Below, piece by piece: positions 4,395 through 62,816 of a DNA stretch of 64,000 bases; position 1 is the stretch's first letter, and every line of letters begins with the position of its first letter. Both the position numbers and the translations under genes were made by a program. The notes beneath the pieces are model-generated. The model was not told where the DNA came from, did not search any database, and saw only the letters and a list, made by a program, of their open reading frames with translations. The DNA lies in contig JAUYAV010000019.1 in the NCBI GenBank assembly GCA_030693325.1, forward strand, positions 134,618 to 198,617. Reading direction: 5' to 3'. Source of the DNA: a bacterium. GTDB lineage: Bacteria; Patescibacteriota; Minisyncoccia; UBA6257; MFKM01.

Positions 4395-4423
4395 TAAGAA
4401 AGAGTTTTTTCCTAAAGGAAGTT

Positions 4424-4461
4424 TACTATTGTAATTCCACGATCGTGGAATTACAATAGTA
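4424..4461. repeat. 38-bp perfect palindrome TACTATTGTAATTCCACGATCGTGGAATTACAATAGTA (copy 1 of 3)
   Basis: Identical copies at ~55180 and ~62817; here it sits just upstream of the grpE promoter. Confidence 0.9.
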
Positions 4462-5086: not shown

Positions 5087-6889
5087 ATGGCAAAAATTTT
5101 AGGCATTGATTTAGGGACAACATATTCGGCGATGGCGGTTATTGAAGCGGGGGAGCCGAAAATAATTGAAAACGCCGAGGGCAACCGGACGACGCCTTCC
5201 GTTGTATCTTTGAGCAAAAACGAGGAACGGCTGGTGGGTTTGCTGGCGAAACGGCAATCAGTCACCAACCCCAAAAACACTATTTTTTCAGTGAAACGTT
5301 TAATTGGCCGGAGGTTCACCGACAAAACCGTCCAATATGATAAGACCTGGTTTTCGTATGAAATTAAGGAGGGAGCTAACGGCGGCGTGGAAATAAAAAT
5401 GGGCGACCGTTGGTATAAGCCCGAGGAAATTTCGGCGATGATTTTGCAAAAATTCAAAGCGGATGCCGAAGCCAAACTGGGAGAAAAAATTGATGAAGCG
5501 GTTATCACCGTGCCGGCTTATTTTGACGACAGTCAGCGCCAAGCGACCAAAAACGCCGGAGAAATCGCCGGATTTAAAGTGCGGCTTATTCTTAACGAGC
5601 CGACAGCCGCGGCTTTGGCTTATGGTTTGAATAAAAATAAAAACGAACAGATTATTGTCTATGATTTCGGCGGCGGCACTTTTGATATTTCCATTCTGGA
5701 AGTCAGCGAAGATGTCATTGAAGTAAAAGGAACCGGCGGCGACACCCATTTGGGCGGCGATGATTTTGATAAAAGAATAATTGATTATTTGGTTTCCGAA
5801 TATAAAAAACAGGAAGGGGCTGACATTTCCAAAGACCCGTTGGCTTTACAGCGCTTAAAAGAAGCGGCTGAACGTGCCAAGCACGAACTTTCTACCGCTT
5901 TAGAAACCGAAATTAATCTTCCTTATATTACGACCGATGCTTCCGGTCCCAAACATTTCCTGATGAAATTAACCCGGGCTAAACTGGAAGAATTAGTCGG
6001 CGATTTGATTGAGCGCTCCATAAAATTAGTTGATGAAACTTTAAAAGAAGCGAACTTCAAACCCGCGGACATTGAGCAAATAGTTTTGGTCGGCGGCCAG
6101 ACGAGAATGCCGGCGATTCAGGAAGCGGTCAAAAAATTTTTCGGCAAAGAACCGCATAAAGATGTCAATCCGGATGAAGTGGTAGCGGCCGGAGCGGCTA
6201 TTCAGGCCGGAATTCTTCAGGGCGAAGTAAAAGATATTCTGCTTTTGGATGTTTCGCCTTTAGGCCTAAGTATTGAAACTATGGGCGGAATCGCGACCCC
6301 GATGATTCCGAAAAACACCACCATCCCAACGGCTAAAACCCAGGTTTTTTCCACGGCGGCTGACAGCCAGACGGCGGTGGAAGTTCATGTGCTTCAGGGA
6401 GAGCGGGAAATGGCGGCTGACAATAAAACTTTGGGCAAATTTTTTCTTGACGGAATTCCGCCGGCGTCTCGGGGCGTGCCCCAAATTGAAGTCACTTTTG
6501 ACATTGATGCTAACGGCATTTTGAATGTTTCCGCTAAAGATAAAGCCAGCGGCAAAACCCAGTCAATCAGAATTGAGGCGACCACTTCATTAAATAAAGA
6601 AGAAGTGGAGAGGTTGAAACAGGAAGCGGCGCTTCACGCCGAAGAAGATAAGAAAAAGAAAGAGTTAGTGGAAGCGAAAAATCAGGCGGAGTCATTGATT
6701 TATCTGGCGGAAAAAACGCTGAAAGAAAACGGCGAAAAAATCGGCCAGGAAGCCAAAGATTCCTTAACGGCAAAAATAGAAAAAATAAAATCAACCAAAG
6801 AAAGCGATAATACAGAAGAAATCCAAGCGGCGGTCAACGAACTTTCTCAAGCTCTTCAAGACATCGGCAAAGGATTGTATAATAAATAA
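5087..6889 (+). CDS. dnaK: Molecular chaperone DnaK (Hsp70)
   Basis: [18 protein letters not shown]; DLGGGTFD; full Hsp70 ATPase and substrate-binding domains. Confidence 0.97.
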
Positions 6890-9165: not shown

Positions 9166-10218
9166 TTGGCAATGGAAATCATTTTTTTAATCGTTATTTT
9201 ATTGGTTTTATTGGGCGGCTTGGCGCTGATTTTTTGGTTTTTGAAAAATCGTTTAGCAGTGCCGAAAAATGACGAGCAATCTTTGCTGATGATTCAAAAC
9301 CAGATTGGTGAAATTACCAAAACTCTTGATAATAAACTTGGTGAGTCAACTAAAAGTATGCAAAGCCAGTTTGACAGCAGTAGCCGGTTAATCAAAGAAA
9401 TCACCCAGGAACTTACTAAAGTCGGTGAAGGGCAAAAGCAGGTGGTGGATGTCGCAAGGCAGTTGGAGGACCTTCAGGATATTTTAAAGAATCCGAAACA
9501 ACGGGGAAATTTGGGCGAATACTCCCTGGAACTGTTATTGCAGAATTTTTTTCCTCATAATTACGAATCCCAGTATGAATTTAAAGACGGCACGAAAGTT
9601 GATTTTATAATCCGCATTAAGGATAAAATTATCCCGATTGATTCTAAATTCAGTTTGGAAAATTATCAGAGAATTTCAGAAGCTAATGACGAAAACCAAA
9701 AGCAGAAACTGGAAGAAGCTTTTAAAAGCGATATCAAAAAACGCATTGATGAAACGGCTAAATATATCAAGCCGGAAGAAAATACGATGGATTTCGCTTT
9801 TATGTTTATTCCAAGCGAAGCGATTTATTATGACCTTTTAGTTAATAAAATCGGCGCTTTGAAAGTTAATACCCGCGATTTGATAGAGTATGCCACGAGA
9901 GAAAAGAAAGTGATTATCGTTTCGCCAACGTCATTTATAGCTTATCTTCAAACCGTTCTTCAGGGCCTGAAAGCCATGCATATAGAAGAAGAAACGAAGA
10001 CAATTATTAAAAACGTAGAAGAATTAAGACGGCATTTGATCGGTTATGCCGATTTTTCTAAAAAAATAGGAGTGCATCTGGGCACGACCGTTAATATGTA
10101 TAATCAATCACAAAAGGAATTCAAGAAAATAGATAAAGACGTTTTGAGAATTACGGGCAAGGTAGTGGGAGTAGAGCCCTTGAATTTAGAAAGTCCGGAA
10201 AATGAAGACGGAGAATAA
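9166..10218 (+). CDS. rmuC: DNA recombination protein RmuC-like
   Basis: N-terminal TM segment, long coiled coil and an RmuC-type C-terminal domain. Confidence 0.6.
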   Translation: MAMEIIFLIVILLVLLGGLALIFWFLKNRLAVPKNDEQSLLMIQNQIGEITKTLDNKLGESTKSMQSQFDSSSRLIKEITQELTKVGEGQKQVVDVARQLEDLQDILKNPKQRGNLGEYSLELLLQNFFPHNYESQYEFKDGTKVDFIIRIKDKIIPIDSKFSLENYQRISEANDENQKQKLEEAFKSDIKKRIDETAKYIKPEENTMDFAFMFIPSEAIYYDLLVNKIGALKVNTRDLIEYATREKKVIIVSPTSFIAYLQTVLQGLKAMHIEEETKTIIKNVEELRRHLIGYADFSKKIGVHLGTTVNMYNQSQKEFKKIDKDVLRITGKVVGVEPLNLESPENEDGE

Positions 10219-11098
10219 AGTTGAGAAATTTTACGAGCGGCTTGGCAGGCCGTCTGGTGATTTTTCTTTGAAAAGACGCCAGCAGGACGTTCTTTTTGAC
10301 AAAAAGTGGCTGCGGTTTCTGAAACTATCGCATTTTTTCAGGCATTTGCCTTTTATAGATTTTATTTTAGGAGCCGGGTCAATGGCGCTGGGGAATGTCC
10401 ACCAAGATTCGGATTTTGATGTTATTGTTGGAGCAAAATCCGGCAGAATTTTTACGGCCAGATTTTTTTGTATTTTAATGTTCGGTTTATTGGGCCGGCG
10501 CCGCCACGCTAAGCGTGGCTATCTGCCCCGCTCAGCGGGGCGCCAAAAACTTTCACATCGGGAAGCCGCCAGTAATAAAATTTGTTTTAATCATTTTGTC
10601 ACTCCGCGGAGTTATTGCCTGAAACCGCCCCACAATATTTATTGGCGGGAACTTTATCAGAATTTGGTTCCGATTTACGGCCGAAAAGAAAAAATCAGGG
10701 AATTTTTTGAAGCCAATAATTGGATGGGGGAGCGGATTTACCCCGTTAGAAGTTCAGCTAAGTTTTCGGGTTTTTCAACGAACGAAAGCGAATTCGCCTG
10801 CGGCTCCAATTTTTCAAAGAAAAAAGCTTTGTTGAAAACTTCTAACGGGGTTTATTCCGATGACTTGCGCCATGGATTTTATGAGCCGAGTTTTATTGCT
10901 TCTATTTTGGAAAAAATGTTAAGCGGCCGGTTTGGTGATTTTATAGAACGAATATTGAAACAAATTCAAATTAAAAGAATTAAAAAAAGCCCGAAAGACA
11001 GTTTGGGATTTGAGCCGCGAATGGTTTTCAATAATGATGAACTGGAGTTTCATCCCGACACCTTGAGAATCCATAAATTGCTGTCCGATGAAAAGTAA
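10202..11098 (+). CDS. Hypothetical protein with a Pol-beta-like nucleotidyltransferase motif (GS…DSDFDV). It hosts a copy of the GC-rich in-frame element.
   Basis: GAGSMALGNVHQDSDFDVIV; GC-rich palindromic insert at 10498-10545. Confidence 0.4.
   Translation: MKTENKVEKFYERLGRPSGDFSLKRRQQDVLFDKKWLRFLKLSHFFRHLPFIDFILGAGSMALGNVHQDSDFDVIVGAKSGRIFTARFFCILMFGLLGRRRHAKRGYLPRSAGRQKLSHREAASNKICFNHFVTPRSYCLKPPHNIYWRELYQNLVPIYGRKEKIREFFEANNWMGERIYPVRSSAKFSGFSTNESEFACGSNFSKKKALLKTSNGVYSDDLRHGFYEPSFIASILEKMLSGRFGDFIERILKQIQIKRIKKSPKDSLGFEPRMVFNNDELEFHPDTLRIHKLLSDEK
10498..10545. repeat. GC-rich ~48-bp double-hairpin element (GGCGCC-GCCACGCTAAGCGTGGC-TATCT-GCCCCGCTCAGCGGGGC-GCC), in-frame inside the CDS
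   Basis: Near-identical to the reverse complement of 18810-18855 inside fusA. Confidence 0.85.
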
Positions 11099-13463: not shown

Positions 13464-13865
13464 GTGGATATGTATTATGATTGGCTGAACGGTTTTATCA
13501 CGCCTTTAATAAAGATATTTGAGAAAGAGTTAAGAAAGGGTTTTGTTTACGATTTAAGGATGGCTGAAATGGCGGCTAAGCACAGCGATGCGATGAGAAA
13601 ATATAATGTGGATTATTCTTATCATGCTCCGAAAGAATTTTGGGATACAGCGTTTGCCGAATTAGTGGGTGATCCTTATTATGTTTTTTATGATGATTGG
13701 GCGATCAGGCAAGCAATGGAAGAAATTGCTTACAAGTTTTTGAATTCGCCCGCTGGCCATCGAAGCGCTTTAGAAAAATATCCAGTTATAGGCGGCGGGA
13801 TAGCTCTCAACCAGATTGGAAACGGCTGGGTAAAGGTTTATACAACCTTGAGATTAAGATACTAA
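13464..13865 (+). CDS. Small hypothetical protein, paralog 1 of a tandem pair
   Basis: Strong SD AAGGAGGTG; shares YYDW, IGgGIAL and TLRLR motifs with 14013..14426; has its own terminator. Confidence 0.55.
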   Translation: MDMYYDWLNGFITPLIKIFEKELRKGFVYDLRMAEMAAKHSDAMRKYNVDYSYHAPKEFWDTAFAELVGDPYYVFYDDWAIRQAMEEIAYKFLNSPAGHRSALEKYPVIGGGIALNQIGNGWVKVYTTLRLRY

Positions 13866-16777: not shown

Positions 16778-17404
16778 ATGTCTGACATTTCCATCACAAT
16801 TTTTCAGCTGATTGTTTTATATGCCTCAATGGTCATTCATGAAGTTTCTCATGGACTGACCGCTTATAAATTGGGCGACCCGACGCCGAAGTTGGCCGGC
16901 CGGCTGACTTTCAACCCCTTAAAACACATTGACCCGTTCGGCACGGTGCTTCTGCCTATGTTTCTTATCTTATTTCATAGTCCTTTTGTGATTTGTTATG
17001 CCAAACCGGTTCCTTTCAATCCCGATAATTTCCGGAACGTTAAAAAAGGAATTATACTTACGGGATTGGCCGGGCCGCTTTCTAATATTTCTCTGGCGGT
17101 TATTTTTTCTATATTGATAAGATTACTGGGTTTTTTCGGAATTTTATCTTCTTCGCTTTTGACTTTTTTGTTTATCGTCGTTTTTTTGAATCTTTTATTC
17201 GCTTTTTTCAATCTGGCTCCTTTTCCGCCTTTTGACGGGCATCATATCTTTTTCTCGCTTTTGCCGGATAAATTTTATGGGATTAAAAATTTTTTGACGG
17301 GAAATTATTTTTTCCTGATGCTGATTTGGGTTTTTCTTGCTTTTCCGTATTTAATTGTTCCGTTGGCTTATCGGCTTTCCCTGATTTTTATCGGAAGTGC
17401 TTAA
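16778..17404 (+). CDS. Membrane zinc metalloprotease, peptidase M50 (site-2 protease) family
   Basis: HEVSHG (HExxH) within a TM helix; polytopic. Confidence 0.7.
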   Translation: MSDISITIFQLIVLYASMVIHEVSHGLTAYKLGDPTPKLAGRLTFNPLKHIDPFGTVLLPMFLILFHSPFVICYAKPVPFNPDNFRNVKKGIILTGLAGPLSNISLAVIFSILIRLLGFFGILSSSLLTFLFIVVFLNLLFAFFNLAPFPPFDGHHIFFSLLPDKFYGIKNFLTGNYFFLMLIWVFLAFPYLIVPLAYRLSLIFIGSA

Positions 17405-17412
17405 CAAAAGGG

Positions 17413-17551
17413 TTGACCCCGTTAGAAGCCTGACGAATCCTAAATTAAGCAACAATCAACAAAGTCCTGTTTAAAATAAAAATTTAATTCAATCTAGAAA
17501 CAGAAAAATTTAATAAATTTTTCTGTTTTAGGGCTTCTAACGGGGTTGACA
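17413..17551. repeat. Family-A palindromic MITE-like element, copy 1 (TIR ACCCCGTTAGAAGCC…GGCTTCTAACGGGGT). Its right end carries a TTGACA -35 box for rpsL.
   Basis: 15-bp terminal inverted repeats and internal hairpin acagaaaaattt…aaatttttctgt; homologous copies at ~22583 and ~58841. Confidence 0.85.
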
Positions 17552-17573
17552 ATCCTTTTGATTCCAGTATTAT
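17546..17573 (+). promoter_or_regulatory. Putative promoter of the rpsL-rpsG-fusA operon (TTGACA-N16-TATTAT)
   Basis: The -35 lies inside the right terminus of the family-A element. Confidence 0.5.
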
Positions 17574-17633
17574 TTAGAAATTATCTGCCAGAGACGGATT
17601 TGTCTTCGGCGGAAAGATTAAAATTTTAGCGAT

Positions 17634-18053
17634 ATGCCTACGATCAGACAATTAATTAAAAAAGGAAGAAAGAAAACGAGCGCTAAAAAGAAAACCCCGG
17701 CTTTAGGGCGTTATTTCAATTATCTTAAAAATCGCCCAACTAATTCCGTTTCGCCTTTCAAGCGGGGAGTTTGCCTGAAAGTTTTCACCACCACTCCTAA
17801 AAAACCGAATTCCGCTTTGAGAAAAGTGGCCCGGGTGCGTTTGAGCAACGGGATGGAAGTGACGGCTTATATTCCCGGTGAAGGACATCTTCTTCAGGAG
17901 CATTCGGTGGTTTTAATTCGCGGCGGCCGGGTGAAAGATTTGCCGGGCGTGAGATATCACATTGTCCGTGGGATTTTGGATACCACCGGCGTGGAAAACC
18001 GGAAACAACAGCGCTCGAAATACGGAGCTAAAAGACCTAAAGTAAATGCGTAA
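17634..18053 (+). CDS. rpsL: 30S ribosomal protein S12
   Basis: [13 protein letters not shown]…[16 protein letters not shown]. Confidence 0.97.
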
Positions 18054-18519
18054 AAAACAAATTTATAAAAACAGAAAATTGCGCCAGCCCGATATTAAAT
18101 TCAACAGTTTAGTTGTTGGCCGATTTATCAATTATTTGATGTTTGAAGGGAAAAAATCTTTAGCGGAGAAAATAGTTTATCAGGCCTTTGAACAAATAGA
18201 GAAAACAACCAAAGAAGACCCGATGAAAGTTTTTGAAAAGGCCTTGGAAAATGTCAGTCCGCTGGTGGCTGTGGCCTCCCGGAGAGTCGGAGGCGCTAAT
18301 TATCAGGTGCCGATGGAAGTGAGGCCGGAAAGAAAATTCTTCCTGGCTGGTCATTGGATTATCGCGGCCGCCCGAGCGCGGAAAGGAAGAACCATGGTTG
18401 AAAACTTGGCGGAAGAAATTATCGCCGCTTCCAAAAACGAAGGAACGGCCGTTAAAAAGAAACAGGACATGCATCGAGTAGCGGAAGCTAACCGAGCGTT
18501 CGCCCATTTTGCGAGATAA
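18046..18519 (+). CDS. rpsG: 30S ribosomal protein S7
   Basis: S7 family, 157 aa. Confidence 0.95.
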
Positions 18520-18521
18520 AA

Positions 18522-18575
18522 GTAATTACTGTAATTACAGTAATTACAGCAATTACAGCAATTACCGTAATTACT
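18522..18575. repeat. Six tandem 9-bp repeats GTAATTACN in the rpsG–fusA spacer
   Basis: gtaattact gtaattaca gtaattaca gcaattaca gcaattacc gtaattact. Confidence 0.9.
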
Positions 18576-18584
18576 ATTTTTTTT

Positions 18585-20711
18585 ATGCGTCAATATCCTT
18601 TAGAAAAATATCGTGATATCGGCATCATTGCCCACATTGATGCTGGGAAAACAACCGTTTCCGAACGGATTCTTTTTTACACCGGAATTTCCCATAAAAT
18701 CGGCGAGGTTCATACCGGCGATACCGTTATGGACTGGATGGAGCAGGAAAGAGAAAGAGGAATTACGATTACGGCGGCGGCCACGACTTGCTACTGGACC
18801 CCGACTTACGGCGCCCCGCTGAGCGGGGTAGATAGCCACGCTGAGCGTGGCGGCGACGAATACAGAATCAATATTATTGACACTCCGGGCCATATTGATT
18901 TTACCGTTGAAGTTCAGCGTTCACTGAGGGTGCTTGACGGCGGAGTGGTTGTTTTTGACGGCGTGGCGGGAGTGGAGCCGCAGTCGGAAACGGTCTGGCG
19001 TCAGGCGGACAAATACAAAGTGCCGCGGATTTGTTTTGTGAACAAGCTTGACAGGATGGGAGCTGATTTTGAAAAAACTTTACGGTCCATCAGAGAGCGC
19101 TTGCACCCGAAACCGGCAGTGCTTCAGTGGCCTATCGGCCTTGAAGAAAAATTTGAAGGCGTTATTGATTTGTTAAAACGGCAGGCCTTTTATTTTGAAG
19201 GGGATCATGGTGAAAAAATAATTGCTAAAGAAATCCCGGAAAATTTTAAAAAAACGGCTGAAGAAAAAAGAGAAAAATTAGTGGAGATGATTGCCGAAAC
19301 CGATGACAATTTATTACATCGCTATCTTGAAGGCCAGGAAATCAGCCAAGAGGATTTGAAAAAGACGCTAAGAGTTGCCTCCTTAAAAGGAGAATTAATT
19401 CCTGTGCTTTGCGGCAGCGCTTTGAAAAATAAAGGCGTTCAGCTTCTCTTGGACGCGGTTGTTGATTATTTGCCTTCGCCGCTTGATTTGCCGCCGGTAA
19501 AAGGCATTAACCCGGATAATCAAAAAGAAGAAGAAAGGTCAGCTAAAGACGGGCAGCCGTTTGCCGCTCTGGCTTTTAAAATCGCAACCGATCCGTTTGT
19601 GGGCTCGCTGACTTTTTTCCGGGTTTATTCCGGGGTGCTTCAAAAAGGGACTTATGTTTTAAACGTTTCCAAAAATTCTCAGGAAAGAATCGGCCGGATT
19701 TTGCGAATGCACGCCAATCACCGGGAAGAAGTGGATGAAGTTTGCGCGGGCGACCTTGGGGCTTTTGTGGGTTTAAAAAACACCACGACCGGAGATACTC
19801 TTTGCGACCCCGAGCACCCGATTATTTTGGAAAAAATTGTTTTCCCCGAGCCGGTCATTTCTATTCGGATTGAACCGAAAACCAAAGTTGACCAGGAAAA
19901 AATGTCTATGGCTTTGCATAGGCTTTTAGAGGAAGATCCGACTTTCAAAGTGATTGGCGACCCCGATACCGGCGAAACTATTATTTGGGGGATGGGGGAG
20001 CTTCATTTGGAAATTATTGTTGACCGGATGAAACGGGAATTCAGCGTTGAATGCAGTGTCGGCCGGCCTCAAGTGGCTTACAAGGAAACCATAGTTGGAA
20101 CGGCTGAAGCCGAAGGCAAATACATTCGCCAATCCGGCGGTCGCGGTCAATACGGTCATGTCTTTTTGAGAGTGGAACCCTTGGAACGAGGGAAGGGCTT
20201 TGAATTTGTTAATGCTATTAAAGGAGGCACTATTCCCTCGGAATTTATTCCGGCCGCGGAAAAAGGAGTTAAAGAAGCGATGGACAAAGGCGTTTTGGCC
20301 GGCTATCCTTTTGTTGACACCAAAGTCACGCTTTATGACGGTTCTTACCACGATGTTGATTCTTCGGAAGCGGCTTTCAAAATCGCCGGGTCTATCGCTT
20401 TCCAGGAAGCGGTAAAAAGAGCCAAAATGGTTTTACTGGAGCCGATGATGAAAGTTCAGGTGATTACCCCGCCGAATTTCTTGGGCGATGTCACTGGCGA
20501 CCTTAACGCCCGCCGGGGCAAGATTGAGGCCATGACCGAAAGAATTGGAATTAATGTCATTGACGTGAAAGTTCCTTTGTCGGAAATGTTCGGTTATGCC
20601 ACTAATATAAGGTCAATGACCCAGGGCCGCGGCAGTTTCACGATGGAATTTAACAGCTATGAAGAAGTGCCCAATAATATTACTCAGCGGATTGCCGAGG
20701 GCAAAAAATAA
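18585..20711 (+). CDS. fusA: Elongation factor G. It carries a ~12-aa insertion, encoded by the GC-rich element, just before the [11 protein letters not shown]3 motif.
   Basis: [14 protein letters not shown] and full EF-G domains. Confidence 0.97.
18810..18855. repeat. GC-rich double-hairpin element inside fusA, in reverse orientation relative to the copy at 10498
   Basis: ggcgcc-ccgctgagcgggg-tagata-gccacgctgagcgtggc-ggcg encodes [18 protein letters not shown]. Confidence 0.85.
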
Positions 20712-20719
20712 AAAGGCGC

Positions 20720-20886
20720 GGGGTTGACCCCCACACCAATTAAGTTTTTGTCCATCTAAATTTTCAAAGAAAATTTAGATGGACTAGATTTATCCAAATA
20801 AAATTTTTCATTGTTTTGCTCAGATTTTCTTTCTAAGAAAATTATCCAGTAATATTAAACTTGATTGGTGTGGGGGTTGACATAAA
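20720..20886. repeat. Family-B palindromic element (TIR GGTTGACCCCCACACCAAT…ATTGGTGTGGGGGTTGAC) between fusA and tuf
   Basis: 19-bp inverted termini and an internal perfect hairpin gtccatctaaatttt…aaaatttagatggac. Confidence 0.8.
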
Positions 20887-20903
20887 AAAAAATTCACTAT
20901 AAA
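20877..20903 (+). promoter_or_regulatory. Putative tuf promoter (TTGACA-N15-TATAAA) formed by the right end of the family-B element
   Basis: Hexamers read directly; 50 nt upstream of tuf. Confidence 0.45.
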
Positions 20904-20955
20904 CTAAACAAGTCGTTTTATTATTAAAAAATCAAAATAAAAATTTAAATTAAAT

Positions 20956-22155
20956 ATGGCAGAAAAAGCAAAATTCGTCAGATCAAAACCCCACGTTAAC
21001 GTCGGGACTGTCGGTCACATTGACCACGGCAAGACGACTTTAACGGCGGCGATAATGAATGTTCTTAAATTAAAAGGTCTTATTCAAAAAGCCGAAGGCG
21101 TGGATCAGATTGACAATGCGCCCGAAGAAAAAGCTCGGGGGATTACGATTGCCATTCACCACTCGGAATACGAAACCGAGAAAAGACACTATGCCCACAT
21201 TGATTGTCCGGGGCACGCCGACTATATCAAAAACATGATTACGGGTTCCGCCCAGATGGACGGCGCGATTTTGGTGGTTTCCGCGGCTGACGGCCCGATG
21301 CCTCAAACCCGAGAGCATATTATTTTGGCCCGTCAGGTTGGAGTTCCTTATATTGTTGTCTTTTTGAACAAAGTTGACCAGGTTGACGATAAGGAATTAA
21401 TTGATTTAGTTGAGTCCGAAGTGAGAGAGCTTTTGAAAAAATATGAATTTCCTGGCGATGAGATTCCGGTTATTCGCGGTTCAGCCCTTAAGGCCTTGGA
21501 AGCCAAATCAGTTGACGATGAATGGTGCAAACCGATTCTTGAATTAGCCAAAGCGCTTGATGAATATATTCCTGACCCGATTAGAGAAACCGACAAGCCT
21601 TTTCTTATGCCGGTTGAGGATATTTTTAGCATTGAAGGTCGCGGCACGGTGGTTACCGGAAGAGTTGAGCGGGGAGTAGTCAAAGTCAACGAAGAGGTTG
21701 AACTGGTTGGCTTGAAACCCACGAGCAAAGTGGTAGTCACGGGCATTGAAATGTTTAATAAGGTATTAGATGAAGGTCGCGCTGGAGAAAACGTTGGTAT
21801 TTTGCTTCGGGGTTCTAAAAAAGAGGACGTGGAGCGCGGTCAGGTTATCGCTAAAACCGGCAGTGTTACGCCGCACACTGAATTTGAAGCCAGTGCTTAT
21901 ATTTTGAGTAAAGAAGAAGGTGGCCGTCATACGCCGTTCTTCACCGGTTATAAACCCCAATTTTACATTCGGACCTGTGATATCACCGGCGAAGCGACTC
22001 TTCCTGCCGGAACGGAAATGGTAATGCCCGGCGATACCGTCAATCTTAGTATCAAACTTATTGCTCCGGTGGCTTTGGAAGAAAAACAACGTTTCGCTAT
22101 TCGCGAAGGAGGCAAAACGGTAGGCGCTGGCGCCATAACTAAGATAATAAAGTAA
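20956..22155 (+). CDS. tuf: Elongation factor Tu
   Basis: [14 protein letters not shown] and NKVD motifs; 399 aa. Confidence 0.98.
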
Positions 22156-22161
22156 GAGTTT

Positions 22162-22503
22162 ATGGCGAAAGTTTCTAAAAAAGTTGCCGAAGTGGAAGAA
22201 AAGGAAAGAGTAAGATTGAAAATCAAGGCTTACGACCATAAACTGATTGACAATTCTTGTCGGCAAATAATTGAAGTCATAGAACGTCAGGGCGGAGAAG
22301 TAGTTGGCCCTGTTCCTCTACCGACTGAATTTCACCGTTATACCGTCAATCGTTCAACCTTTATCCATAAAGATTCACGCGAGCAATTTGAAATGAGAGT
22401 GCACAAACGCTTGATAGATATCATCAATCCCAGCCAGAAAATAATTGCTTCGCTGGATAATCTTAATTTGCCGGCAGGGGTTGATATTGAAGTGAAGCTA
22501 TAG
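22162..22503 (+). CDS. rpsJ: 30S ribosomal protein S10
   Basis: [13 protein letters not shown] signature. Confidence 0.95.
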
Positions 22504-22548
22504 TAATATTTGGGGTAAGAAATAAAGGATTTAGCCAAAAAAAATAAT

Positions 22549-22585
22549 CAAAACTGCCGAGGCTAAACCTGGGCAGTTTTGATTT
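22549..22585 (+). terminator. Hairpin plus T-run after rpsJ (aaaactgccgagg…cctgggcagttttgattt)
   Basis: ~13-bp stem with one mismatch followed by TTTTGATTT; a terminator inside the S10 operon is unusual. Confidence 0.5.
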
Positions 22586-22708
22586 ACCCCGTTAGAAGTC
22601 ATGACGAATTCCAAGCTAAATAATTATTAACGGGAATGGAAATTTAATTTATTTTCCAAAAACAGAAAAAATTTTAAAATTTTTTCTGGCCAAGACTTCT
22701 AACGGGGT
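22583..22708. repeat. Family-A palindromic element, copy 2, inserted between rpsJ and rplC
   Basis: CCCCGTTAGAAGTC…GACTTCTAACGGGG with the same internal acagaaaaa/tttttctg hairpin. Confidence 0.85.
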
Positions 22709-22719
22709 TTAAAACAAAT

Positions 22720-23169
22720 ATGAGTTTAATAACAGGAAAAAAATTACAAATGAGCCAGATTTTCAAAGACGGAAAAGTAATTCCGGTTACCCCGATTAAG
22801 GTTGCCGATATTTCGGTTTTTAATGAAGGCGAATTGCTCAAGATAACCGGAATAAGCCGCGGTATAGGATTTCAGGGCGTAGTCAAACGCTGGGGTTTCC
22901 ATGGCGGACCGAAAAGTCATGGGGGTAAACACAGCTTGCGGGCTCCAGGCTCAATCGGCTCAACCGCGCCTCAGCGGGTGTTAAAAGGCAGGAAAATGGC
23001 CGGTCGAACCGGCGGCCGCCAAAAAACCATCGGAAATCTTGAAGTAGTTTCTTTAAATAAAGAAAATGCCGTTTTAATGGTGAAAGGAGCGATACCCGGC
23101 TATAAAAATTCAGAAATTAAAATTCAGAAAGACGCCAGTCATAAAGCATTAAAAAAGAAATTACGGTAA
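22720..23169 (+). CDS. rplC: 50S ribosomal protein L3 (short, 149 aa)
   Basis: L3 N-terminal KKLQMSQIF…GFQGVVKRWGF. Confidence 0.9.
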   Translation: MSLITGKKLQMSQIFKDGKVIPVTPIKVADISVFNEGELLKITGISRGIGFQGVVKRWGFHGGPKSHGGKHSLRAPGSIGSTAPQRVLKGRKMAGRTGGRQKTIGNLEVVSLNKENAVLMVKGAIPGYKNSEIKIQKDASHKALKKKLR

Positions 23170-23199
23170 TTGCCGTAATTACTGTAATTACAGTAATTT
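23170..23199. repeat. Three tandem TTAC[AT]GTAA 9-mers in the rplC–rplD spacer
   Basis: ttgccgtaattactgtaattacagtaattta. Confidence 0.85.
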
Positions 23200-23202
23200 A
23201 AT

Positions 23203-23841
23203 ATGAAAGCGGATTTATTCAATCAAAAAAACGAAAAAATTGGAACAGTGGAATTACCCGAAGCCGTTTTTGGCGTTAAATTTAATTCGGACTTGGTTCA
23301 TCAAGTATTGACGGTCCAGGTCGCTAATCGCCGAAGAACCTTAGCCGACACAAAAGACAGAGGCGAAGTCAGAGGCGGCGGTAAGAAGCCCTGGAAGCAA
23401 AAAGGCACGGGCCGGTCAAGGCAGGGTTCAAGCCGTTCACCTTTATGGAAAGGCGGCGGGGTCACTTTTGGTCCTCAAAAAGAAAGAAATTTTTCCAGAA
23501 GTATAAATCAAAAAATGAAGCAATTGGCGATTTTCGGAATTTTTTCCAAAAAATTAGCCGATCAGGAAATTAAAATTATTGACACTTTGAATTTGGAAGA
23601 CCGCAAGACCAAAAAATTAGCCGAGCTGTTGAAAAAATTTATTACGCCCAAGGAAAGCGTTTTATTGATTCCCGCCAACGAAAACAAAATTATTTATTTG
23701 GCCGGGCGAAATTTGCCCAAAGTCGGCGTTATGAGTCCCGAGTCGCTCAATGTTTACGATTTGCTGAAATATAGAAAAATTCTTTTGGACCAAACCGCCG
23801 TTGAATCAATAGTTAAACATTATAAATTAATCAGTAATTAA
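23203..23841 (+). CDS. rplD: 50S ribosomal protein L4
   Basis: L4 family; position in the operon. Confidence 0.93.
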   Translation: MKADLFNQKNEKIGTVELPEAVFGVKFNSDLVHQVLTVQVANRRRTLADTKDRGEVRGGGKKPWKQKGTGRSRQGSSRSPLWKGGGVTFGPQKERNFSRSINQKMKQLAIFGIFSKKLADQEIKIIDTLNLEDRKTKKLAELLKKFITPKESVLLIPANENKIIYLAGRNLPKVGVMSPESLNVYDLLKYRKILLDQTAVESIVKHYKLISN

Positions 23842-39602: not shown

Positions 39603-41078
39603 ATGCTTACTAAACGCCAAAAACAAATTCTCGATTTTATTACCGACTATCAAAAACGAAAAAGGTATGCCCCCACTCTTGAAGATATATGCAAAAAATT
39701 TAAACTTGCATCGGTTTCAACGGCTCATTTTCATATTTCCAAACTTCGTGATTTGGGATATTTAACGAAGGAAGAAAACAAGCCTCGTTCCATCTCTGTT
39801 TCGAAACACGAGCAAATGGTTAAAATCCCTCTTTTGGGGACCATTGCCGCCGGACAACCAATTGAAGCAATCCAAAACAAAGAAATGATTGCGGTTCCCA
39901 AAAGTATGCTTCCACGTTCGTCGGAAGTATACGCGCTCCGCGTTGTTGGAAATAGTATGATTGACGAGAATATCAACGACGGCGATATCGTTTTAGTAAG
40001 ACAACAAGAAACAGCGGAGAATGGGCAAAAGGTCGTGGCGCTTATTGATAACCACGAAGCAACGCTCAAAAAGTATTATCAAGAGCGAGGACATATTCGC
40101 CTACAACCAGCTAATAAAAATATGGAGCCGATCATATTGCGAAATGGTCGGGATATTTCCATACAAGGAATAGTGCTTGATGTGATCAGAGATGCTGGCA
40201 CAGCTACTCTTAAGAAAGAACAAGTGAAAATGTATTCCGATACAAAACTATTAAAAAATACGCTTATATCTAAACCATATTATGAAAAACCAAAATTCAA
40301 ACTTTACCAAGCAAACTGCTTGGACATTCTTGCCAAACTTTCTGAAAATTCTGTTGATATGATTTTTGCCGATCCCCCCTATAATCTTTCAAACGGAGGC
40401 ATTACCGTTCACGCTGGACGAATGGTTAGCGTCAATAAAGGAGATTGGGACAAGAGCAAGGGATTCAAAGATGATTACGATTTTCATTACAAATGGATAG
40501 ATGCCTGTCGGAGAGTTTTAAAACCCCATGGTACACTTTGGGTTAGTGGCACTTACCATTCAATTTATCAATGCGGTTATGCTTTGCAGTCACTTGGATA
40601 CCAAATTCTAAACGATGTCGCTTGGTTCAAACCAAACGCATCGCCGAATTTAAGTTGCCGATATTTTACGGCAAGCCATGAAACTTTACTTTGGGCGAGA
40701 AAGGATAAAAAGGCAAAACATATTTTCAATTATGCTTTAATGAAAAATGGCAACTGGCCGGAAGATCAGCTAAAAAAACCAGGGCTTCAAATGCGTTCGG
40801 TTTGGGCGATGGGAACACCGAAAACAATTGAAAAAAGATTTGGAAAACATCCTACGCAAAAACCGGAAGATTTACTAAAACGAATCGTGCTTGCCTCAAC
40901 TAACAAGGGCGATTTAGTTGTTGATCCATTCACTGGAAGTTCAACAACTGGAATTGCCGCCTATCTTTTGGGACGGCACTTTATCGGTGTTGATACTGAA
41001 CCAAAGTATTTGGATGTATCAATAAAGCGATTTGAGGAATTGGATCGCAATCTAAAAAATAAATACAAAAAAGTATGA
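39603..41078 (+). CDS. Fusion protein: a full LexA-like repressor (wHTH, Ala-Gly cleavage site, S24 Ser/Lys peptidase) joined to a beta-class N6-adenine (DPPY) DNA methyltransferase
   Basis: LexA part: LGTIAAGQP, VVGNSM and ATLKKY. MTase part: IFADPPYNLS (motif IV) followed by VVDPFTGSSTTG (motif I). Confidence 0.8.
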   Translation: MLTKRQKQILDFITDYQKRKRYAPTLEDICKKFKLASVSTAHFHISKLRDLGYLTKEENKPRSISVSKHEQMVKIPLLGTIAAGQPIEAIQNKEMIAVPKSMLPRSSEVYALRVVGNSMIDENINDGDIVLVRQQETAENGQKVVALIDNHEATLKKYYQERGHIRLQPANKNMEPIILRNGRDISIQGIVLDVIRDAGTATLKKEQVKMYSDTKLLKNTLISKPYYEKPKFKLYQANCLDILAKLSENSVDMIFADPPYNLSNGGITVHAGRMVSVNKGDWDKSKGFKDDYDFHYKWIDACRRVLKPHGTLWVSGTYHSIYQCGYALQSLGYQILNDVAWFKPNASPNLSCRYFTASHETLLWARKDKKAKHIFNYALMKNGNWPEDQLKKPGLQMRSVWAMGTPKTIEKRFGKHPTQKPEDLLKRIVLASTNKGDLVVDPFTGSSTTGIAAYLLGRHFIGVDTEPKYLDVSIKRFEELDRNLKNKYKKV

Positions 41079-43088: not shown

Positions 43089-44216
43089 ATGGAGCCGTTA
43101 GCATCAAAAATAAGACCGAAAATTTTGGAAGAATTTGTCGGTCAGGAGCATTTAGTCGGAGAAGGAAAGCCTTTTAATATAGCTATAAAACAAAAGCATT
43201 TGTTTTCTTTTATTTTATGGGGGCCTCCTGGAACCGGAAAAACTACTTTGGCCAAGATATATGCCAATAGTCTGAACGCAAAAATTTATGAATTGTCCGC
43301 GGTTTCGGCCGGAAAAGCGGATATCAGAAAAATACTAGAAGAAGACTCGGACGGAGTTCCTAAAGTTTTATTTTTAGACGAAATACATCGCTTTAATAAA
43401 TCCCAGCAGGACTTTCTGCTTCCTTATGTTGAAAGAGGGGAGATAATTTTGATTGGCGCCACTACCGAAAATCCGAGTTTTGAAGTGATATCGGCTTTGC
43501 TTTCCCGATGCCGAGTTTTCGTTTTAAATGAACTTTCAGAAAATAACATAAAGGCCATTATTAAAAGAACCGGAATGAAAATGGATGAAGCGGCGGAAGA
43601 TTGGCTGGTAAATGCGGCCAATGGCGATGCCAGACAAGTAATAACTTTGTTGGAAAACACCAGCGAACTTTATAAAAAGATTACGGTGGAAAATTTAAAA
43701 AACGTTCTCCAATCAAAGTTTTTGAGATACGACAAAGTCGGGGAAGAACATTACAACACTATTTCCGCCTTTATCAAAAGCATGAGAGCGAGCCAGCCTG
43801 ATGCGGCTTTGTATTATTTGGCTCGGATGATTGATTCCGGCGAAGACCCAAAATTTATAGCCAGAAGAATGGTTATTTTTGCTTCCGAGGATATTGGTTT
43901 GGCTCAGCCCACAGCCTTAGTAGTGGCTAATGATGTTTTTCGGGCCGTGGAAATAATCGGTCTGCCCGAATGCGGTATTAATTTGGCTCACGGAGTAGCT
44001 CATCTGTGCCAGTGTAAAAAAGACAGAAGAGCCCATGATGCTTATATGGAAGCGATGGAAGACGTAAAAAATTTCGGCAATCTTCCTATCCCTTTAAGTT
44101 TGCGGAATCCTGAGACAAAATTAATGAAAGATTTAAATTACGGCAAAGGATACGAAAAATATTCCAAGGAATCTTTTCTGCCCGAAAAATTAAAAGGAAA
44201 AAAATATTTAAAATAA
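43089..44216 (+). CDS. rarA: Replication-associated recombination protein RarA/MgsA (AAA+)
   Basis: WGPPGTGKTTLA; FLDEIHRFNKSQQD; MgsA C-terminal helical domain. Confidence 0.9.
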   Translation: MEPLASKIRPKILEEFVGQEHLVGEGKPFNIAIKQKHLFSFILWGPPGTGKTTLAKIYANSLNAKIYELSAVSAGKADIRKILEEDSDGVPKVLFLDEIHRFNKSQQDFLLPYVERGEIILIGATTENPSFEVISALLSRCRVFVLNELSENNIKAIIKRTGMKMDEAAEDWLVNAANGDARQVITLLENTSELYKKITVENLKNVLQSKFLRYDKVGEEHYNTISAFIKSMRASQPDAALYYLARMIDSGEDPKFIARRMVIFASEDIGLAQPTALVVANDVFRAVEIIGLPECGINLAHGVAHLCQCKKDRRAHDAYMEAMEDVKNFGNLPIPLSLRNPETKLMKDLNYGKGYEKYSKESFLPEKLKGKKYLK

Positions 44217-47200
44217 TGCCCCTGAATCTGGAAAAACTTAATAAAGAGCAAAAAGAAGCCGTGGTTCATGGCCAGGGGCCGCTTTTGATTGTGGCCGGAG
44301 CCGGAACCGGCAAAACGACGGTTATCACCCAGAGAATAGTTAATTTAATTGAAAAGGAGAAAGTTAAACCTGAAGAAATATTGGCCGTCACTTTTACCGA
44401 AAAGGCGGCCGCGGAAATGGAAGAAAGGGTTGATATTCTTTTGCCTTATGGCTATGTGGATTTGTGGATTTCCACTTTCCATTCTTTCTGCGAAAGGGTC
44501 TTGCGCGATTACGCTTTGGATATCGGCTTGCCGGCGGATTTTAAGATTTTAGACAACACGGCCGGCTGGCTTTTGGTTTATCGCAATCTGGAAAAATTCA
44601 ATCTCGATTATTACAAACCCCTGGGGAATCCGACCAAATTTATCCAGGCCCTGATTTCTCATTTTTCCCATTGCAAAGACCAGGCGATTTATCCCGAAGA
44701 TTATTTAAAATACGCCGAAAAGCTGAAAACCCGGGATGACGCGCCGGAAGAAAATGAAACCGAGAGGATAAAAGAAGTGGCGAACGCTTACCATGTTTAT
44801 CAGCGTTTGCTTTTGGAGAACAGTTCTCTGGATTTTGGCGATTTGATAAATTATTGTTTGAAATTGTTTCAGAAAAGGCCGCTGATTTTGAAAAAATATC
44901 GGGAAAAATTCAAATACATTTTAGTTGACGAATTTCAGGACACCAACTGGGCGCAATACGAGCTTATAAAAATCTTAGCGGCGCCGAAAAATAATCTGAC
45001 CGTCTGTGCCGACGATGACCAATGTTTGCCGGGCAATTCAAAAATAGAGATTTTTGAGAACGATAAAATCAAAATAAAGGAAATTAAAAAAATTGAAATA
45101 GGCGATAAAGCATTAACAGCCGTAGGAAAAGGTCATATAGGGGTTGCTAATGTGAATAATGTTTTCGTCAAAAACAAGAGGGCAAAGATATTAACCGTTA
45201 AAACAGAAGGCGGCTATTCAGTAAGCGTGACAGATAATCATAAAATGTTTTGCTGTGTTCCAAGAACTGCTCGGCAGAATTATCATTATGTTTATTTGAT
45301 GTTTAGAAAAAATTTGGGGTGGAGGATAGGGGTAACTGATGATTTAATTTTGCGGCTTAGGATAGAGCGTTCGGCAGATAAAATTTTGGCAATAAGGGCC
45401 TTTAACACTGATTCTGAAGCGAGATATCACGAAACATTGTGGTCGTTGAAGTACGGCATACCCACTTGTTGTTTTAAAAGCAGGGAAGGCATCGTTATCA
45501 AAGAAAATGAGTTGGCTAAATTATATAAGGAAATTAATACCGAAGATAATATACGGAAATTAGCTCAAGATTTAAATATTGACTTAGATTCGCCCCATTA
45601 TTGTCTAGATGCCGTTAACAGGGGAAGAAGCGTCAGGATAATCATCAATTTGCAAATGTGCTACAGAAATTACCGAAGCAAGGAACACGTCAGAAGCGAG
45701 AAAACTCTGCTTTTGAATGGCTTGACAAGGCACAGGCTTTATTTGGAAACGTCAGACAAGCAAACAATTAAGAAGCTAAAAACAGCAGGATATATTCTTT
45801 ATAAAGCGAGGAAAGGAATGAAATTAAACATAGAAGGAGGCGATGTAAAAGATCTTGAAGGAAAAGCAAGAGCGATAGAAAAAATTACAGGCGGATTCAT
45901 AGAATATAAATTTAATGTTGCGAGCAAATACAGCAAGCCGTCAGGCACGGCACGAAATTATATGTCTTTGATTATGCCCGCAAAAAATTTAGTTTTAGGA
46001 CACTATCTTCCGGTAAAAAAAGGCGCTGAGATAATTTACGATAAAATAATTTCAATTAAAGAAGTTGATAAAAAAATAAAAGTATATGATTTGGAAATCG
46101 ACAAAACCCATAATTTTATAGCCAACGGAATAGTGGTCCACAATTCTGTTTATAGGTGGAGAGGGGCATCTTATAGCAACATAGTCCAATTCAATAAAGA
46201 TTTCCCGAAAGCCGAGCAAATTTCTTTGGTTAAAAATTACCGGTCCGGCCAGAATATTTTGGATTTGGCTTATAAATTCATAAAAGCCAATAATCCCGAC
46301 CGCCTTGAATACGTAAATAAAATAAACAAGGAATTAATCGCCCAGGAAAAAGGTGAAGGCAAAATAGAGCATATTTTGGCGAAGAACCTGGAAGAAGAAG
46401 TTGATAAAACAATAAAGAAGATCTTAGGGATTCTTAAAAAAGACAAAGACGCCGGTTATAACGATTTTGCGATTTTAGTCAGAGCCAATGACGCGGCCAA
46501 TCCTTTTATTAAGGCCCTGGAGCGCGCGGGCTTGCCTTATCAATTTTTGGCTTCAAGAGGGCTTTATTCAAAGCCGGTTATTTTGGACGTAATCTCATAT
46601 TTCAAACTTTTGGATAATTACCACGAGAGCCCGGCGGTTTACCGGATCTTGAATATGCCATTTTTGGAAATCCCGCCCGCGGATATTATGAAGCTTACTC
46701 AATACAGCCACAAAAAAACAAAGTCGCTTTATGAGGCGATGGAAGAGCTTCCTCTAATTCCGGGAATTTCTCCGGAAGTTCAGGAAAAAATCCTTTTCGT
46801 TTTGAGCTTGATTAAAAAACACGCCATTTTTGCCAAAGAAAAATCGGTCTCGGAAATAATGATTGCATTTCTTAAAGAGTCGGGATATATAAAATATTTA
46901 ACGAAAAAAGACGACAAAGAACAGTTTGATTTACTCAATCAATTCCATAAAAAAGTGAAGAATTTTGAGAGTGCGGCAATAGAGCCGACTTTAGGCAATT
47001 TTATGCGGGAAATAAATCTTGAGATAGAATCCGGCGAAGAAGGAAAGCTTGAATTTGACCCCGAGCAAGGCCCGGACATGATAAAAATAATGACTATCCA
47101 CGGAGCTAAGGGCTTGGAATTCAAATATGTTTTTTTGGTTAATATGGTGGATAAAAGATTTCCGACAATGGAAAGAAAGGATTTAATTGAGCTACCCGAA

Positions 47201-55169: not shown

Positions 55170-55179
55170 TCAAAAGATT

Positions 55180-55217
55180 TACTATTGTAATTCCACGATC
55201 GTGGAATTACAATAGTA
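55180..55217. repeat. 38-bp perfect palindrome, copy 2, between the convergent gatB and miaA genes; it overlaps the last miaA codons
   Basis: Identical to 4424-4461. Confidence 0.9.
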
Positions 55218-56142
55218 AAAATTTATTTGCCATTGAACGGGCCTGATTTTCCGTCTTAATCCAAATAATACTTTTATCCCTTTTAAACCAGGTTATCTGG
55301 CGTTTGGCGTAGCGGTAAATTTCTTTTTTCATTTGCTCGGTCATTTCTTCATAAGAAATCAAACCGCGCAGATAATCGGCGGCCAGCCGGTATTCCAAGC
55401 CCAATTCCCCAAACCGTTTCCAGTTTAGTCCTTTTTTGTGGAGTTTTTCTATTTCTTCAATCAGACCTTTTTTCAGCGTTTTTTCCAATCTTTGATTGAT
55501 TAACTGCCGAAGTTCGTTTGGTGTTTTTTTGATGCCTATTTTTAATACCGCAAACGCGGTCGCTGATTTCCGCTGATTCCGCTGATTTACGCTGATAGCA
55601 TTTCGCTCTAACGGCGGTACGGGAGATCCGGTTGTGATAACGATTTCCAGGGCCCTGACTAATCTTCTTCGGTTGCAAGGGTCAATATTAGCCGCTCTTT
55701 TGGGATCAAATTTCTGAAGCATCCGGAAAAGTTCTTCTAATGATTTTTTTTCAAGCCGTTTTCGCAAACCTTTCTGAGGAGCCACGGCCGGCAATTTATA
55801 ATCATAAATCAAAGCGTCAATGTAAAATCCGCTGCCGCCGACTATTATTGGAAATTTATTTTTTTTAAAAATTCCATTCAGGATTTTTTTGGCCGCTTTT
55901 TGATATTGGACCACAGTATAAGTTTTTTGCGGCTTAACAATGTCAATCATATGATGTTTGACGCCTTTCATTTCTTTTTTGGTTATTTTTTCCGTGCCGA
56001 TATTCAGTCCTTTATAAATCTGGCGGGAGTCAGCCGAAATTATTTCGCCGTTAAATTTCTTGGCGATTTTAATGGCCAATTGCGATTTCCCGGAAGCCGT
56101 CGGCCCGAGAATGACGATGATTTTATTATTTATATTTTTCAT
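55207..56142 (-). CDS. miaA: tRNA dimethylallyltransferase
   Basis: GPTASGKS P-loop; IISADSRQIY. Confidence 0.9.
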   Translation of the reverse strand: MKNINNKIIVILGPTASGKSQLAIKIAKKFNGEIISADSRQIYKGLNIGTEKITKKEMKGVKHHMIDIVKPQKTYTVVQYQKAAKKILNGIFKKNKFPIIVGGSGFYIDALIYDYKLPAVAPQKGLRKRLEKKSLEELFRMLQKFDPKRAANIDPCNRRRLVRALEIVITTGSPVPPLERNAISVNQRNQRKSATAFAVLKIGIKKTPNELRQLINQRLEKTLKKGLIEEIEKLHKKGLNWKRFGELGLEYRLAADYLRGLISYEEMTEQMKKEIYRYAKRQITWFKRDKSIIWIKTENQARSMANKFLLL

Positions 56143-58840: not shown

Positions 58841-58973
58841 CACCCCGTTAGAAGTCTGGTTCATGTTTAATAATGATTATTATTTTAATTAAAAATTCAT
58901 ATTTGATTAACCTATCTGTTATGACAGAAAAATTTCTATAGAAATTTTTCTGTTCAAGACTTCTAATGGGGTT
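58841..58973. repeat. Family-A palindromic element, copy 3, filling the gap between the dnaE stop and the thrS start
   Basis: CCCCGTTAGAAGTC…GACTTCTAATGGGG with the internal acagaaaaattt…aaatttttctgt hairpin. Confidence 0.85.
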
Positions 58974-62783: not shown

Positions 62784-62816
62784 TCCACAACACAATTTAA
62801 ATTACTAAATTCAATT

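Follow-up and report, generated by a model that had tools for sequence, protein, structure and literature searches.

What are the short palindromic sequences that stand in front of rpsL, rplC and thrS in a stretch of 64,000 nucleotides from a Patescibacteriota bacterium (assembly GCA_030693325.1, contig JAUYAV010000019.1, positions 134,618 to 198,617; hereafter the window)? An earlier note, made from the sequence alone, offered two answers: mobile MITEs (miniature transposable elements with inverted repeats) that carry outward promoters, or a cis-regulatory RNA structure shared by the leaders of translation genes. The present analysis makes it very probable that these sequences are a family of non-autonomous DNA transposons, that is MITEs, distributed mainly in the Patescibacteria (the candidate phyla radiation, or CPR, bacteria). 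The evidence comes from their terminal inverted repeats (TIRs), the 4-bp duplications that flank them, the empty sites found in relatives and the presence of copies on at least 120 contigs in unrelated contexts. The three elements first described were recovered where they had been placed, and a fourth was added within an open reading frame (ORF). All coordinates are positions in the whole window, and the bounds of elements exclude the flanking duplication:

17417-17545, plus strand: MITE copy 1, 129 nt, of the long subfamily with an AT-rich hairpin, between the M50 protease gene and the rpsL promoter
17413-16 and 17546-49: TTGA duplication of copy 1
17500-17526: internal AT-rich hairpin of copy 1, ACAGAAAAATTT-AAT-AAATTTTTCTGT
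17546-17573, plus strand: rpsL promoter, TTGACA-16-TATTAT, its TTGA being the right-hand target-site duplicate
~22547-22582, plus strand: native terminator-like hairpin 3' of rpsJ, AAAACTGCC...GGCAGTTTT followed by GATTT, outside the element
22587-22707, plus strand: MITE copy 2, 121 nt, between rpsJ and rplC
22583-86 and 22708-11: TTTA duplication of copy 2
22663-22688: internal AT-rich hairpin of copy 2
58843-58971, plus strand: MITE copy 3, 129 nt, at the dnaE-thrS junction
58839-42 and 58972-75: TTCA duplication of copy 3
58923-58954: internal AT-rich hairpin of copy 3
10741-10850, plus strand: MITE copy 4, 110 nt, within ORF 10202-11098
10737-40 and 10851-54: TTTA duplication of copy 4

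The four copies share a common anatomy. Matches to the terminal 15-mer ACCCCGTTAGAAGYC with at most two mismatches number eight in the window and form four inverted pairs, where shuffled sequences lead to an expectation of 0.14, and a hidden Markov model built from 133 members of the family found no further copies in the 64 kb. The family unit is CCCCGTTAGAAG...CTTCTAACGGGG, in the window 110-129 nt long, in which TIRs of 12-15 bp of the form CCCCGTTAGAAG(YY) enclose a variable, non-coding core; the 12-nt core of the repeats extends to 15 bp by way of paired changes at positions 13-15. The true bounds of the element are the CCCC at its start and the GGGG at its end, and the bases immediately outside them are direct repeats, not inverted ones. 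The 15-bp TIR proposed earlier therefore needs trimming: the inverted repeats are real, while the outermost A/T is a base of the 4-bp target-site duplication. In RNA folds of the window copies the terminal repeats close a long stem, and the z-scores against shuffled sequences are -4.1 to -9.1 (-8.7 for copy 1). Copies 1-3 constitute a long subfamily (~120-134 nt) with an AT-rich hairpin 5-8 nt inside the right repeat (consensus GCAGAAAAAATTT / AAATTTTTTCTGC), and the internal hairpin ACAGAAAAATTT/AAATTTTTCTGT that had been recognized from the sequence was found in all three. A short subfamily, ~110 nt in length, includes copy 4 and has a GC hairpin at its centre, around GCGAATTCGC.

Mobility is most directly visible where a relative holds the same site without the element. 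Copy 4 lies in the gene of a conserved hypothetical protein that is typically 225-260 aa long among 547 homologues, and the 38 residues that it encodes are present in the window protein, P0001 and P0002 and missing from P0003 and nine other aligned homologues. On the syntenic contig L178 the empty site reads CGGATTTATTCCG with a single TTTA, compared with CGGATTTA-[element]-TTTATTCCG in the window. A second contig, L179, does carry the element in its homologue of ORF 10202, and the two elements are 97.3% identical in surrounding coding DNA that is 75-85% identical; the contig closer to the window, L178, lacks the element, which leaves two explanations, transfer or an independent and recent insertion into the same TTTA.

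The intergenic copies show the same pattern. The site of copy 1 is empty in L185 and L186 (M50 protein 77% identical), which have a short spacer with one TTGACA and keep both this box and the -10 box of rpsL, and L184 holds a decayed copy there that is 73% identical to the window copy, against 76% for the adjacent non-coding leader and 87% for the flanking genes. The earlier suggestion that the right terminus of copy 1 supplies the -35 box of the rpsL operon is thus reversed: the box predates the element and its TTGA was the target. The site of copy 2 is empty in L184 and L186, where the rpsJ-distal hairpin is followed by one TTTA. As had been remarked, copy 2 follows a strong predicted hairpin with a T-rich tail, and its presence in these element-free relatives identifies the hairpin as native. 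For copy 3, the closest ThrS relative recovered in one ThrS-seeded metagenome scan is only 68% identical and has a different palindrome in its dnaE-thrS spacer. Separately, in L185 the rpsL and tuf TTGACA boxes are directly preceded by GGGG or GGGGAA (~10690-10710 and ~13770-13790), and these bases could be what lost elements left behind, in which case the sites are not clean empty ones.

These empty sites refute the alternative of a leader RNA for translation genes, acting through autoregulation by a ribosomal protein or an aminoacyl-tRNA synthetase, and we assign it a vanishingly small probability. Its appeal was that three of the four window copies stand upstream of rpsL, rplC and thrS and that the predicted RNA folds are very stable. 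The placement in translation-gene leaders holds for those three, but copy 4 lies within an unrelated protein-coding ORF, and the link to translation arises from what the window contains, the str/S10 ribosomal cluster. Orthologous copies with covariation had been named as the observation that would point to a conserved leader; the opposite was seen, in that relatives at 77-86% protein identity (M50 marker) have no element at the sites in front of rpsL and rplC, or only a decayed copy or a different element. Further, copy 1 is upstream of the -35 box and hence outside the rpsL transcript, copy 3 is inverted with respect to copies 1 and 2 relative to gene direction, and the family adjoins diverse genes elsewhere. 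A search of Rfam with the window at the gathering threshold returned four tRNAs only, and nothing below E = 0.68 in the copy 1 region when matches up to E = 10 were considered.

The family extends well beyond this genome. Genomes, one per species, were scanned for exact 12-nt TIRs at a distance of 80-110 nt, a range that admitted only copies of 104-134 nt, and copies emerged from at least 120 contigs, which together with those of the window make up a set of 133. The contigs with intact copies are mostly metagenome-assembled genomes labelled as many lineages of Patescibacteria, among them Nealson-, Falkow-, Staskawicz-, Kaiser-, Uhr- and Taylorbacteria, Saccharibacteria and Kazan. Identical 4-nt flanks are present in 90 of the 133 copies, ~88% of these being T..A, and the commonest duplications are TTCA, TTGA, TGAA, TCAA and TTTA (mostly TNNA). 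Some genomes have three or four copies per 8 kb, while 562 kb of CPR DNA selected only for thrS contained two mini-copies and no full-size copy, a patchy distribution as expected of a mobile element. Mini-elements of 29-81 nt are close to a bare pair of TIRs, and several are still flanked by a duplication. The genes downstream of copies elsewhere include those for L11, S6, L4, topoisomerase I (topA), ClpB, a PilB-type ATPase, PBP1, a histidine kinase, TsaE, RNase H, an aminotransferase and an epimerase, and HisA/F, RRF, L2, L3, PilM and SSB are also found at the flanks. A GC-rich variant (internal GCCCCGTG..CACGGGGTT) occurs outside the Patescibacteria bins, in L010, L029, L048 and L083 (labelled Syntrophobacter / delta proteobacterium) and in L063 (Elusimicrobiota), which could reflect spread beyond the CPR or mis-binning.

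Two kinds of landing site are prominent, of which -35 boxes are one. The rpsL promoter beside copy 1 is the best promoter match in 17200-22900 (5.7 kb; 11 of 12 positions), and TTGA duplications as in copy 1 occur at 24 copies (~18% of the 133). At 75% of these 24 a -10-like hexamer follows 16-18 nt past the regenerated TTGAC(A), seven times as a perfect TATAAT, compared with 9% of 12,693 control TTGA sites, a difference that marks the TTGA sites as real -35 boxes. The position-frequency table of the duplications has T (88%) and A (89%) at the two ends with a weaker G at -1 and C at +4, and this profile is a loose palindrome, (TG)TNNA(CA), that favours TTGACA without any further cause.

Start codons form the other large class of sites. 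In 27 copies the configuration is A / TGNA-element-TGNA, in which the upstream duplicate keeps an ATG and in many cases also the TGA with which the preceding gene stops, and the last G of the element joins the downstream TG as a new GTG. An in-frame ORF of at least 70 codons begins at this GTG in 22 of the 27, and TATG is duplicated in 13 further copies. In these two start-codon classes Pfam domains start at residues 1-8 of the ORFs downstream, so these are true N-termini, and ~30% of copies lie directly at true start codons. Window copy 3 belongs to the first class. On the minus strand, which is that of the genes, it reads ATGAA / element / TGAA, with the dnaE stop TGA inside the upstream duplicate and a GTG (58843-41) in the thrS frame. 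It extends over the entire interval from the dnaE stop (58973-58975) to thrS, and the ATG that comes first in frame in the thrS ORF (58864) falls inside the element, both as the earlier note had it. Translational coupling, in which a frame opened by the upstream ATG crosses the element and closes at the TAA of the right TIR or at the duplicated TGA, was tried as a general feature and rejected; copy 3 fits it, but no more than five of the 27 do so overall.

A simple account of these sites would be that insertions survive only where harm is small in a very compact genome, and that the 4-bp duplication helps them to do so. A symmetric target preference of a DDE-type transposase, combined with strong purifying selection in a genome that is ~90% coding, would leave mainly the insertions that preserve signals. 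An insertion at TTGA / CA would regenerate the -35 box, one at A / TGAA would keep the upstream TGA stop and gain a GTG start from the last G of the element, and a genic insertion of length 3n-4 would be readable as extra codons. By this mechanism copy 1 would have broken up the rpsL -35 box, which the duplication then restored, copy 2 would have landed after the rpsJ hairpin, copy 3 at the junction of the dnaE stop and the thrS start, and copy 4 would have added 38 residues to the conserved hypothetical protein. Once transcribed, the terminal repeats are predicted to form a 15-bp RNA stem, with likely effects on mRNA processing or translation.

The genic copies bear on a different possibility, that the elements are removed like introns, or that ribosomes take off and land at the identical 4-nt flanks and skip what lies between, so that an insertion would be harmless anywhere. 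The identical flanks do lie at the base of a long stem that would bring the two junctions together, and several genes have a start codon right against the stem. Yet when the element is removed in silico, a long ORF reappears in only 13 of 133 cases, and six of these are in-frame insertions in which element plus duplication is a multiple of three. At least four of the six are free of stops, including L031, L052, L057 and window copy 4, whose 110 nt together with one duplicate give 114 nt or 38 codons in frame; this pattern would be expected if the elements were translated rather than skipped. On the whole the family stays out of coding sequence, with in-frame genic copies at about six of 133, and Rfam holds no matching ribozyme or intron family. 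We consider removal or skipping highly improbable.

In the A1 subfamily, which has the left end GTCTGTC..., the same end is next to the gene in 17 of 17 start-codon insertions. Over the family as a whole, flanking genes are antisense to the canonical orientation of the element in 27 cases versus nine. A1 elements contain a hairpin, AAGTCTGTC...GACAGACTT, followed by a T-run, and hairpin and T-run score as terminator-like in ten of 25 elements in the canonical direction and in one of 25 in reverse. Such a one-directional structure would silence the downstream gene if the element were flipped, and selection against the polar, terminating orientation is, we infer, the simplest explanation of the A1 bias, though for only part of the set. 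The AT hairpin of the long subfamily pairs perfectly over 9-15 bp (median 12 bp) with 45 different arm sequences. It should be noted that the 52 elements in this comparison were chosen in advance for having a palindrome of 9 nt or more, which makes its presence in 52 of 52 circular and leaves the 45 distinct arms as the informative part. RNAalifold applied to 52 long copies recovered the TIR stem alone, as indels misalign the internal hairpin. The AT hairpin may be a remnant of the terminator of a parent element, or a binding or structural site.

The elements in the window belong to more than one family. A second MITE family, related to the first in its architecture and with the internal hairpin GTCCATCTAAATTTTC..GAAAATTTAGATGGAC, is represented by one copy that splits the -35 box of tuf:

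20728-20876, plus strand: second-family MITE copy, 149 nt, TIR CCCCCACACCAAT
20724-27 and 20877-80: TTGA duplication of the second-family copy
20877-20905: tuf promoter, TTGACA-17-TAAACT, its -35 box split by the second-family element

At the tuf site L186 is empty with one TTGACA and L184 has an orthologous second-family copy. At the rpsL -35 site the closest relative, L182, and L183 have the second family in place of the first. Other CPR contigs have versions of the second family that consist of the two ends only (26-28 nt), and after some of these comes a T-run, as in terminators (L187 5838-5865).

The repeated use of the same promoter boxes could be read as more than survival. MITE origin granted, the elements might serve as portable expression modules, with a transposase that targets -35 hexamers and start codons and a host that tunes or switches genes with them, the transcribed stem-loop being processed by RNase III as in the Correia elements of Neisseria or bridging an old ribosome-loading region to the new GTG or ATG. 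For this speak the enrichment of real -35 boxes with a spaced -10 (75% versus 9%), the ~30% of copies exactly on true start codons, the single orientation of one subfamily in 17 of 17 insertions, and the pairing of the internal hairpin kept across 45 arm sequences. Additionally, two different families have inserted into the rpsL -35 box and the second of them into that of tuf, the TTTA of ORF 10202 was hit in two lineages by elements 97% identical in 75-85% identical flanks, and the essential genes topA, rplK, rpsF, rplD, ssb and thrS still lie directly behind the stem. The Correia elements offer a precedent for RNase III processing and for promoter effects (PMC2649163).

The opposing observations are, in our judgement, the heavier ones. 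The elements contain no conserved promoter: among 25 elements of the best-defined subfamily only three have a sigma-70-like match, in either direction and at scattered positions, so the outward promoters envisaged in the earlier note do not hold up. In only five of 27 copies does a frame opened at the upstream ATG stay open across the element as far as the gene, and the weak palindromic target (TG)TNNA(CA) alone favours TTGACA. Close relatives thrive without the elements, and the L184 orthologue of copy 1 decays at roughly the neutral rate, as judged from its identity to the window copy next to that of the neighbouring non-coding leader. Expression modules are thus possible but unlikely, and a MITE family held in place by target preference and purifying selection is preferred.

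The MITE reading implies an enzyme supplied from elsewhere, as a 4-bp target duplication is the mark that the staggered cuts of a DDE-type transposase leave, in this case one acting in trans. Judged from the sequence, an enzyme of the IS1380/piggyBac type is suggested by the CCC termini, by a T..A duplication of 4 bp and by recurrent insertion at the same sites. In ISfinder, the ends of IS1380 are given as 'CC' with direct repeats of 4-5 bp. PiggyBac has TIRs that start with CCC, e.g. CCCTT, and a 4-bp TTAA duplication with the rare variants TCAA, TAAA and TATG, and IS1380 has been used as its prokaryotic outgroup or relative (PMC10813416). The present family resembles both in its T..A-type duplication and CCC ends and differs in that the middle two bases of the target are free and TTAA is rare. 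The insect piggyBac ends CCCTAGAAAG resemble CCCCGTTAGAAG, which may be chance.

Several observations weigh against the MITE reading or parts of it. The hunt for an autonomous element covered lone TIRs, and pairs of TIRs at distances of 0.6-3.5 kb, in every CPR locus of the analysis, and no transposase or autonomous element with these TIRs was found in the window (Pfam, ten larger ORFs) or in ~0.9 Mb of MITE-bearing contigs. A scan of viral contigs with a 14-mer gave 57 single-end matches, and the sole contig with paired ends, L124, has no transposase. The assignment to IS1380/piggyBac draws solely on features of the ends and the duplication. A perfect 4-bp duplication is missing from 43 of the 133 copies, some of which have 5 bp and some mutated flanks, and the family sample is biased by the requirement for exact 12-nt TIRs at a spacing of 80-110 nt. 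By the criteria used, the terminator account of orientation fits ~40% of A1 copies. Target preference and selection may also not suffice for the excess at start codons, with ATGAA in 24 of 26 TGAA-type sites, nor for the different elements found repeatedly at the same nucleotide.

Among the loci screened in this hunt, TIR pairs 0.8-3.5 kb apart enclose housekeeping genes only (those for HisA/F, RRF, L2, L3, PilM and SSB), and one pair in L060 that was considered as an autonomous element turned out to be two decayed MITEs. The phage contig L124 (IMG/VR 3300009431_000021) has two mini-elements, of 58 nt (2297-2354) and 29 nt (5697-5725). The former provides the C-terminal codons (..SPVRS..) of a 352-aa ORF, and the latter, the two ends alone with the flanks CTCA/CTCA, lies upstream of a 609-aa ORF.

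Comparison with described systems places the family among the bacterial MITEs with features of its own. Like these (PMC10969869), it has elements of ~110-130 nt with TIRs, a duplication, no coding content and, once transcribed, a stable hairpin, in many copies that are mostly intergenic and present or absent between relatives. It is set apart by its own TIR CCCCGTTAGAAG, by the 4-bp TNNA duplication and by its occurrence mainly in the Patescibacteria. A 2024 review of MITEs mentions neither CPR/Patescibacteria nor IS1380-derived MITEs (PMC10969869), and literature searches on MITEs or palindromic elements of the CPR and on the TIR sequence, with full-text search for the latter, returned nothing relevant; the family appears to be undescribed in the searchable literature.

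Three other groups of small palindromic elements invite comparison. Correia elements have a TA duplication, 26-bp repeats and promoter hexamers of their own at the ends, unlike the present family, which has no conserved promoter and in which the -35 box of copy 1 is target DNA. These Neisseria elements (CREE) are MITEs of ~100-150 bp that lie just upstream of genes and are co-transcribed, and their RNA stem is bound or cut by RNase III, changing expression (PMC2649163). The placement before genes and the transcribable stem are alike here, and by analogy RNase III might process these stems too. The Rickettsia palindromic elements (RPEs) are palindromic and mobile, and insert in frame within genes where they are translated as extra residues (PMC10969869). 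Window copy 4 is comparable, with 38 residues in a conserved protein and a close orthologue without them, but in-frame genic copies are frequent among RPEs and rare in this family, which has clear TIRs and duplications. The palindromic elements of the REP or IS200-IS605-derived kind (PATE), with hairpin ends, a fixed short motif and no target-site duplication, differ from this family with its variable 4-bp duplication, checked here against empty sites.

A more far-reaching scheme joins these strands into a piggyBac/IS1380-like cut-and-paste system in Patescibacteria, with at least two MITE families (ends CCCCGTTAGAAG and CCCCCACACCAAT) aimed at -35 hexamers and at start and stop codons. Its inserts would rewire expression reversibly: the duplication and the terminal G would regenerate the signal, the 15-bp RNA stem would be processed or bridged, and seamless excision would restore the allele. 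We regard this scheme as speculative and rather improbable.

Other inserts share the region with the MITEs. A third kind of element, a GC-rich double hairpin of 39 nt (CCACGCTAAGCGTGG..CCCCGCTCAGCGGGG), adds 13 residues in frame at two places in the window, ~10501-10543 and ~18810-18848, and the two copies are mutually inverted and 94% complementary. The first, in ORF 10202, is present in the window and L178 and absent from L179; the second, in the G domain of EF-G, is absent from L184 and L186. Homologues of the ORF 10202 product have inserts of their own: the distant P0013 has an unrelated 14-residue insert (AEAGSG..LAKAGEQI) at the position of the window MITE, and P0012, P0007 and P0056 have small, GC-rich-looking inserts near the N-terminus. 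In L178 a small GIY-YIG nuclease gene (10001-10258) lies between the ORF 10202 homologue and a metallo-beta-lactamase gene, two genes that overlap in the window with nothing between them.

A perfect 40-nt palindrome, TTTACTATTGTAATTCCACGATCGTGGAATTACAATAGTAA, has three copies in the window (4422-4461, 55178-55218 and 62815-62855), and a similar sequence lies upstream of thrS in the dnaE-thrS spacer of the relative L188, in the position that MITE copy 3 takes in the window. Tandem repeats of a 9-nt unit (GTAATTACN) take up the rpsG-fusA (18504-18581) and rplC-rplD (23148-23207) spacers, with the two arrays in opposite orientations; L184 and L186 have no rpsG-fusA spacer, the genes overlapping by one base. 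Two coding regions of the window are also unusual. A UvrD/AddA-type helicase-nuclease of 1360 aa (44216-48298) contains an intein (Intein_splicing/Hint) at residues ~264-643, and a single ORF (39603-41078) combines a LexA DNA-binding domain, an S24 peptidase domain and an N6/N4 DNA methylase domain.

The genomes of the CPR/Patescibacteria are tiny and dense, yet this window has at least five copies of two MITE families in addition to a third, small in-frame element. The inserts fall in the most conserved gene cluster, including EF-G and the promoters of rpsL and tuf, and mobile DNA therefore actively shapes these reduced genomes and their proteins. The elements have practical consequences for annotation, as they account for a thrS start call inside an element, a 38-residue protein insert and the long spacers of the normally tight str/S10 operons, and for assembly and binning, as many copies lie at contig ends and explain contig breaks. 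Should the mobilising enzyme be IS1380/piggyBac-like, a compact tool that excises seamlessly could be made of it. The insertions at -35 boxes and start codons constitute a natural data set on what a 4-bp duplication preserves and on how bacteria poor in Shine-Dalgarno sequences initiate translation beside a strong stem.

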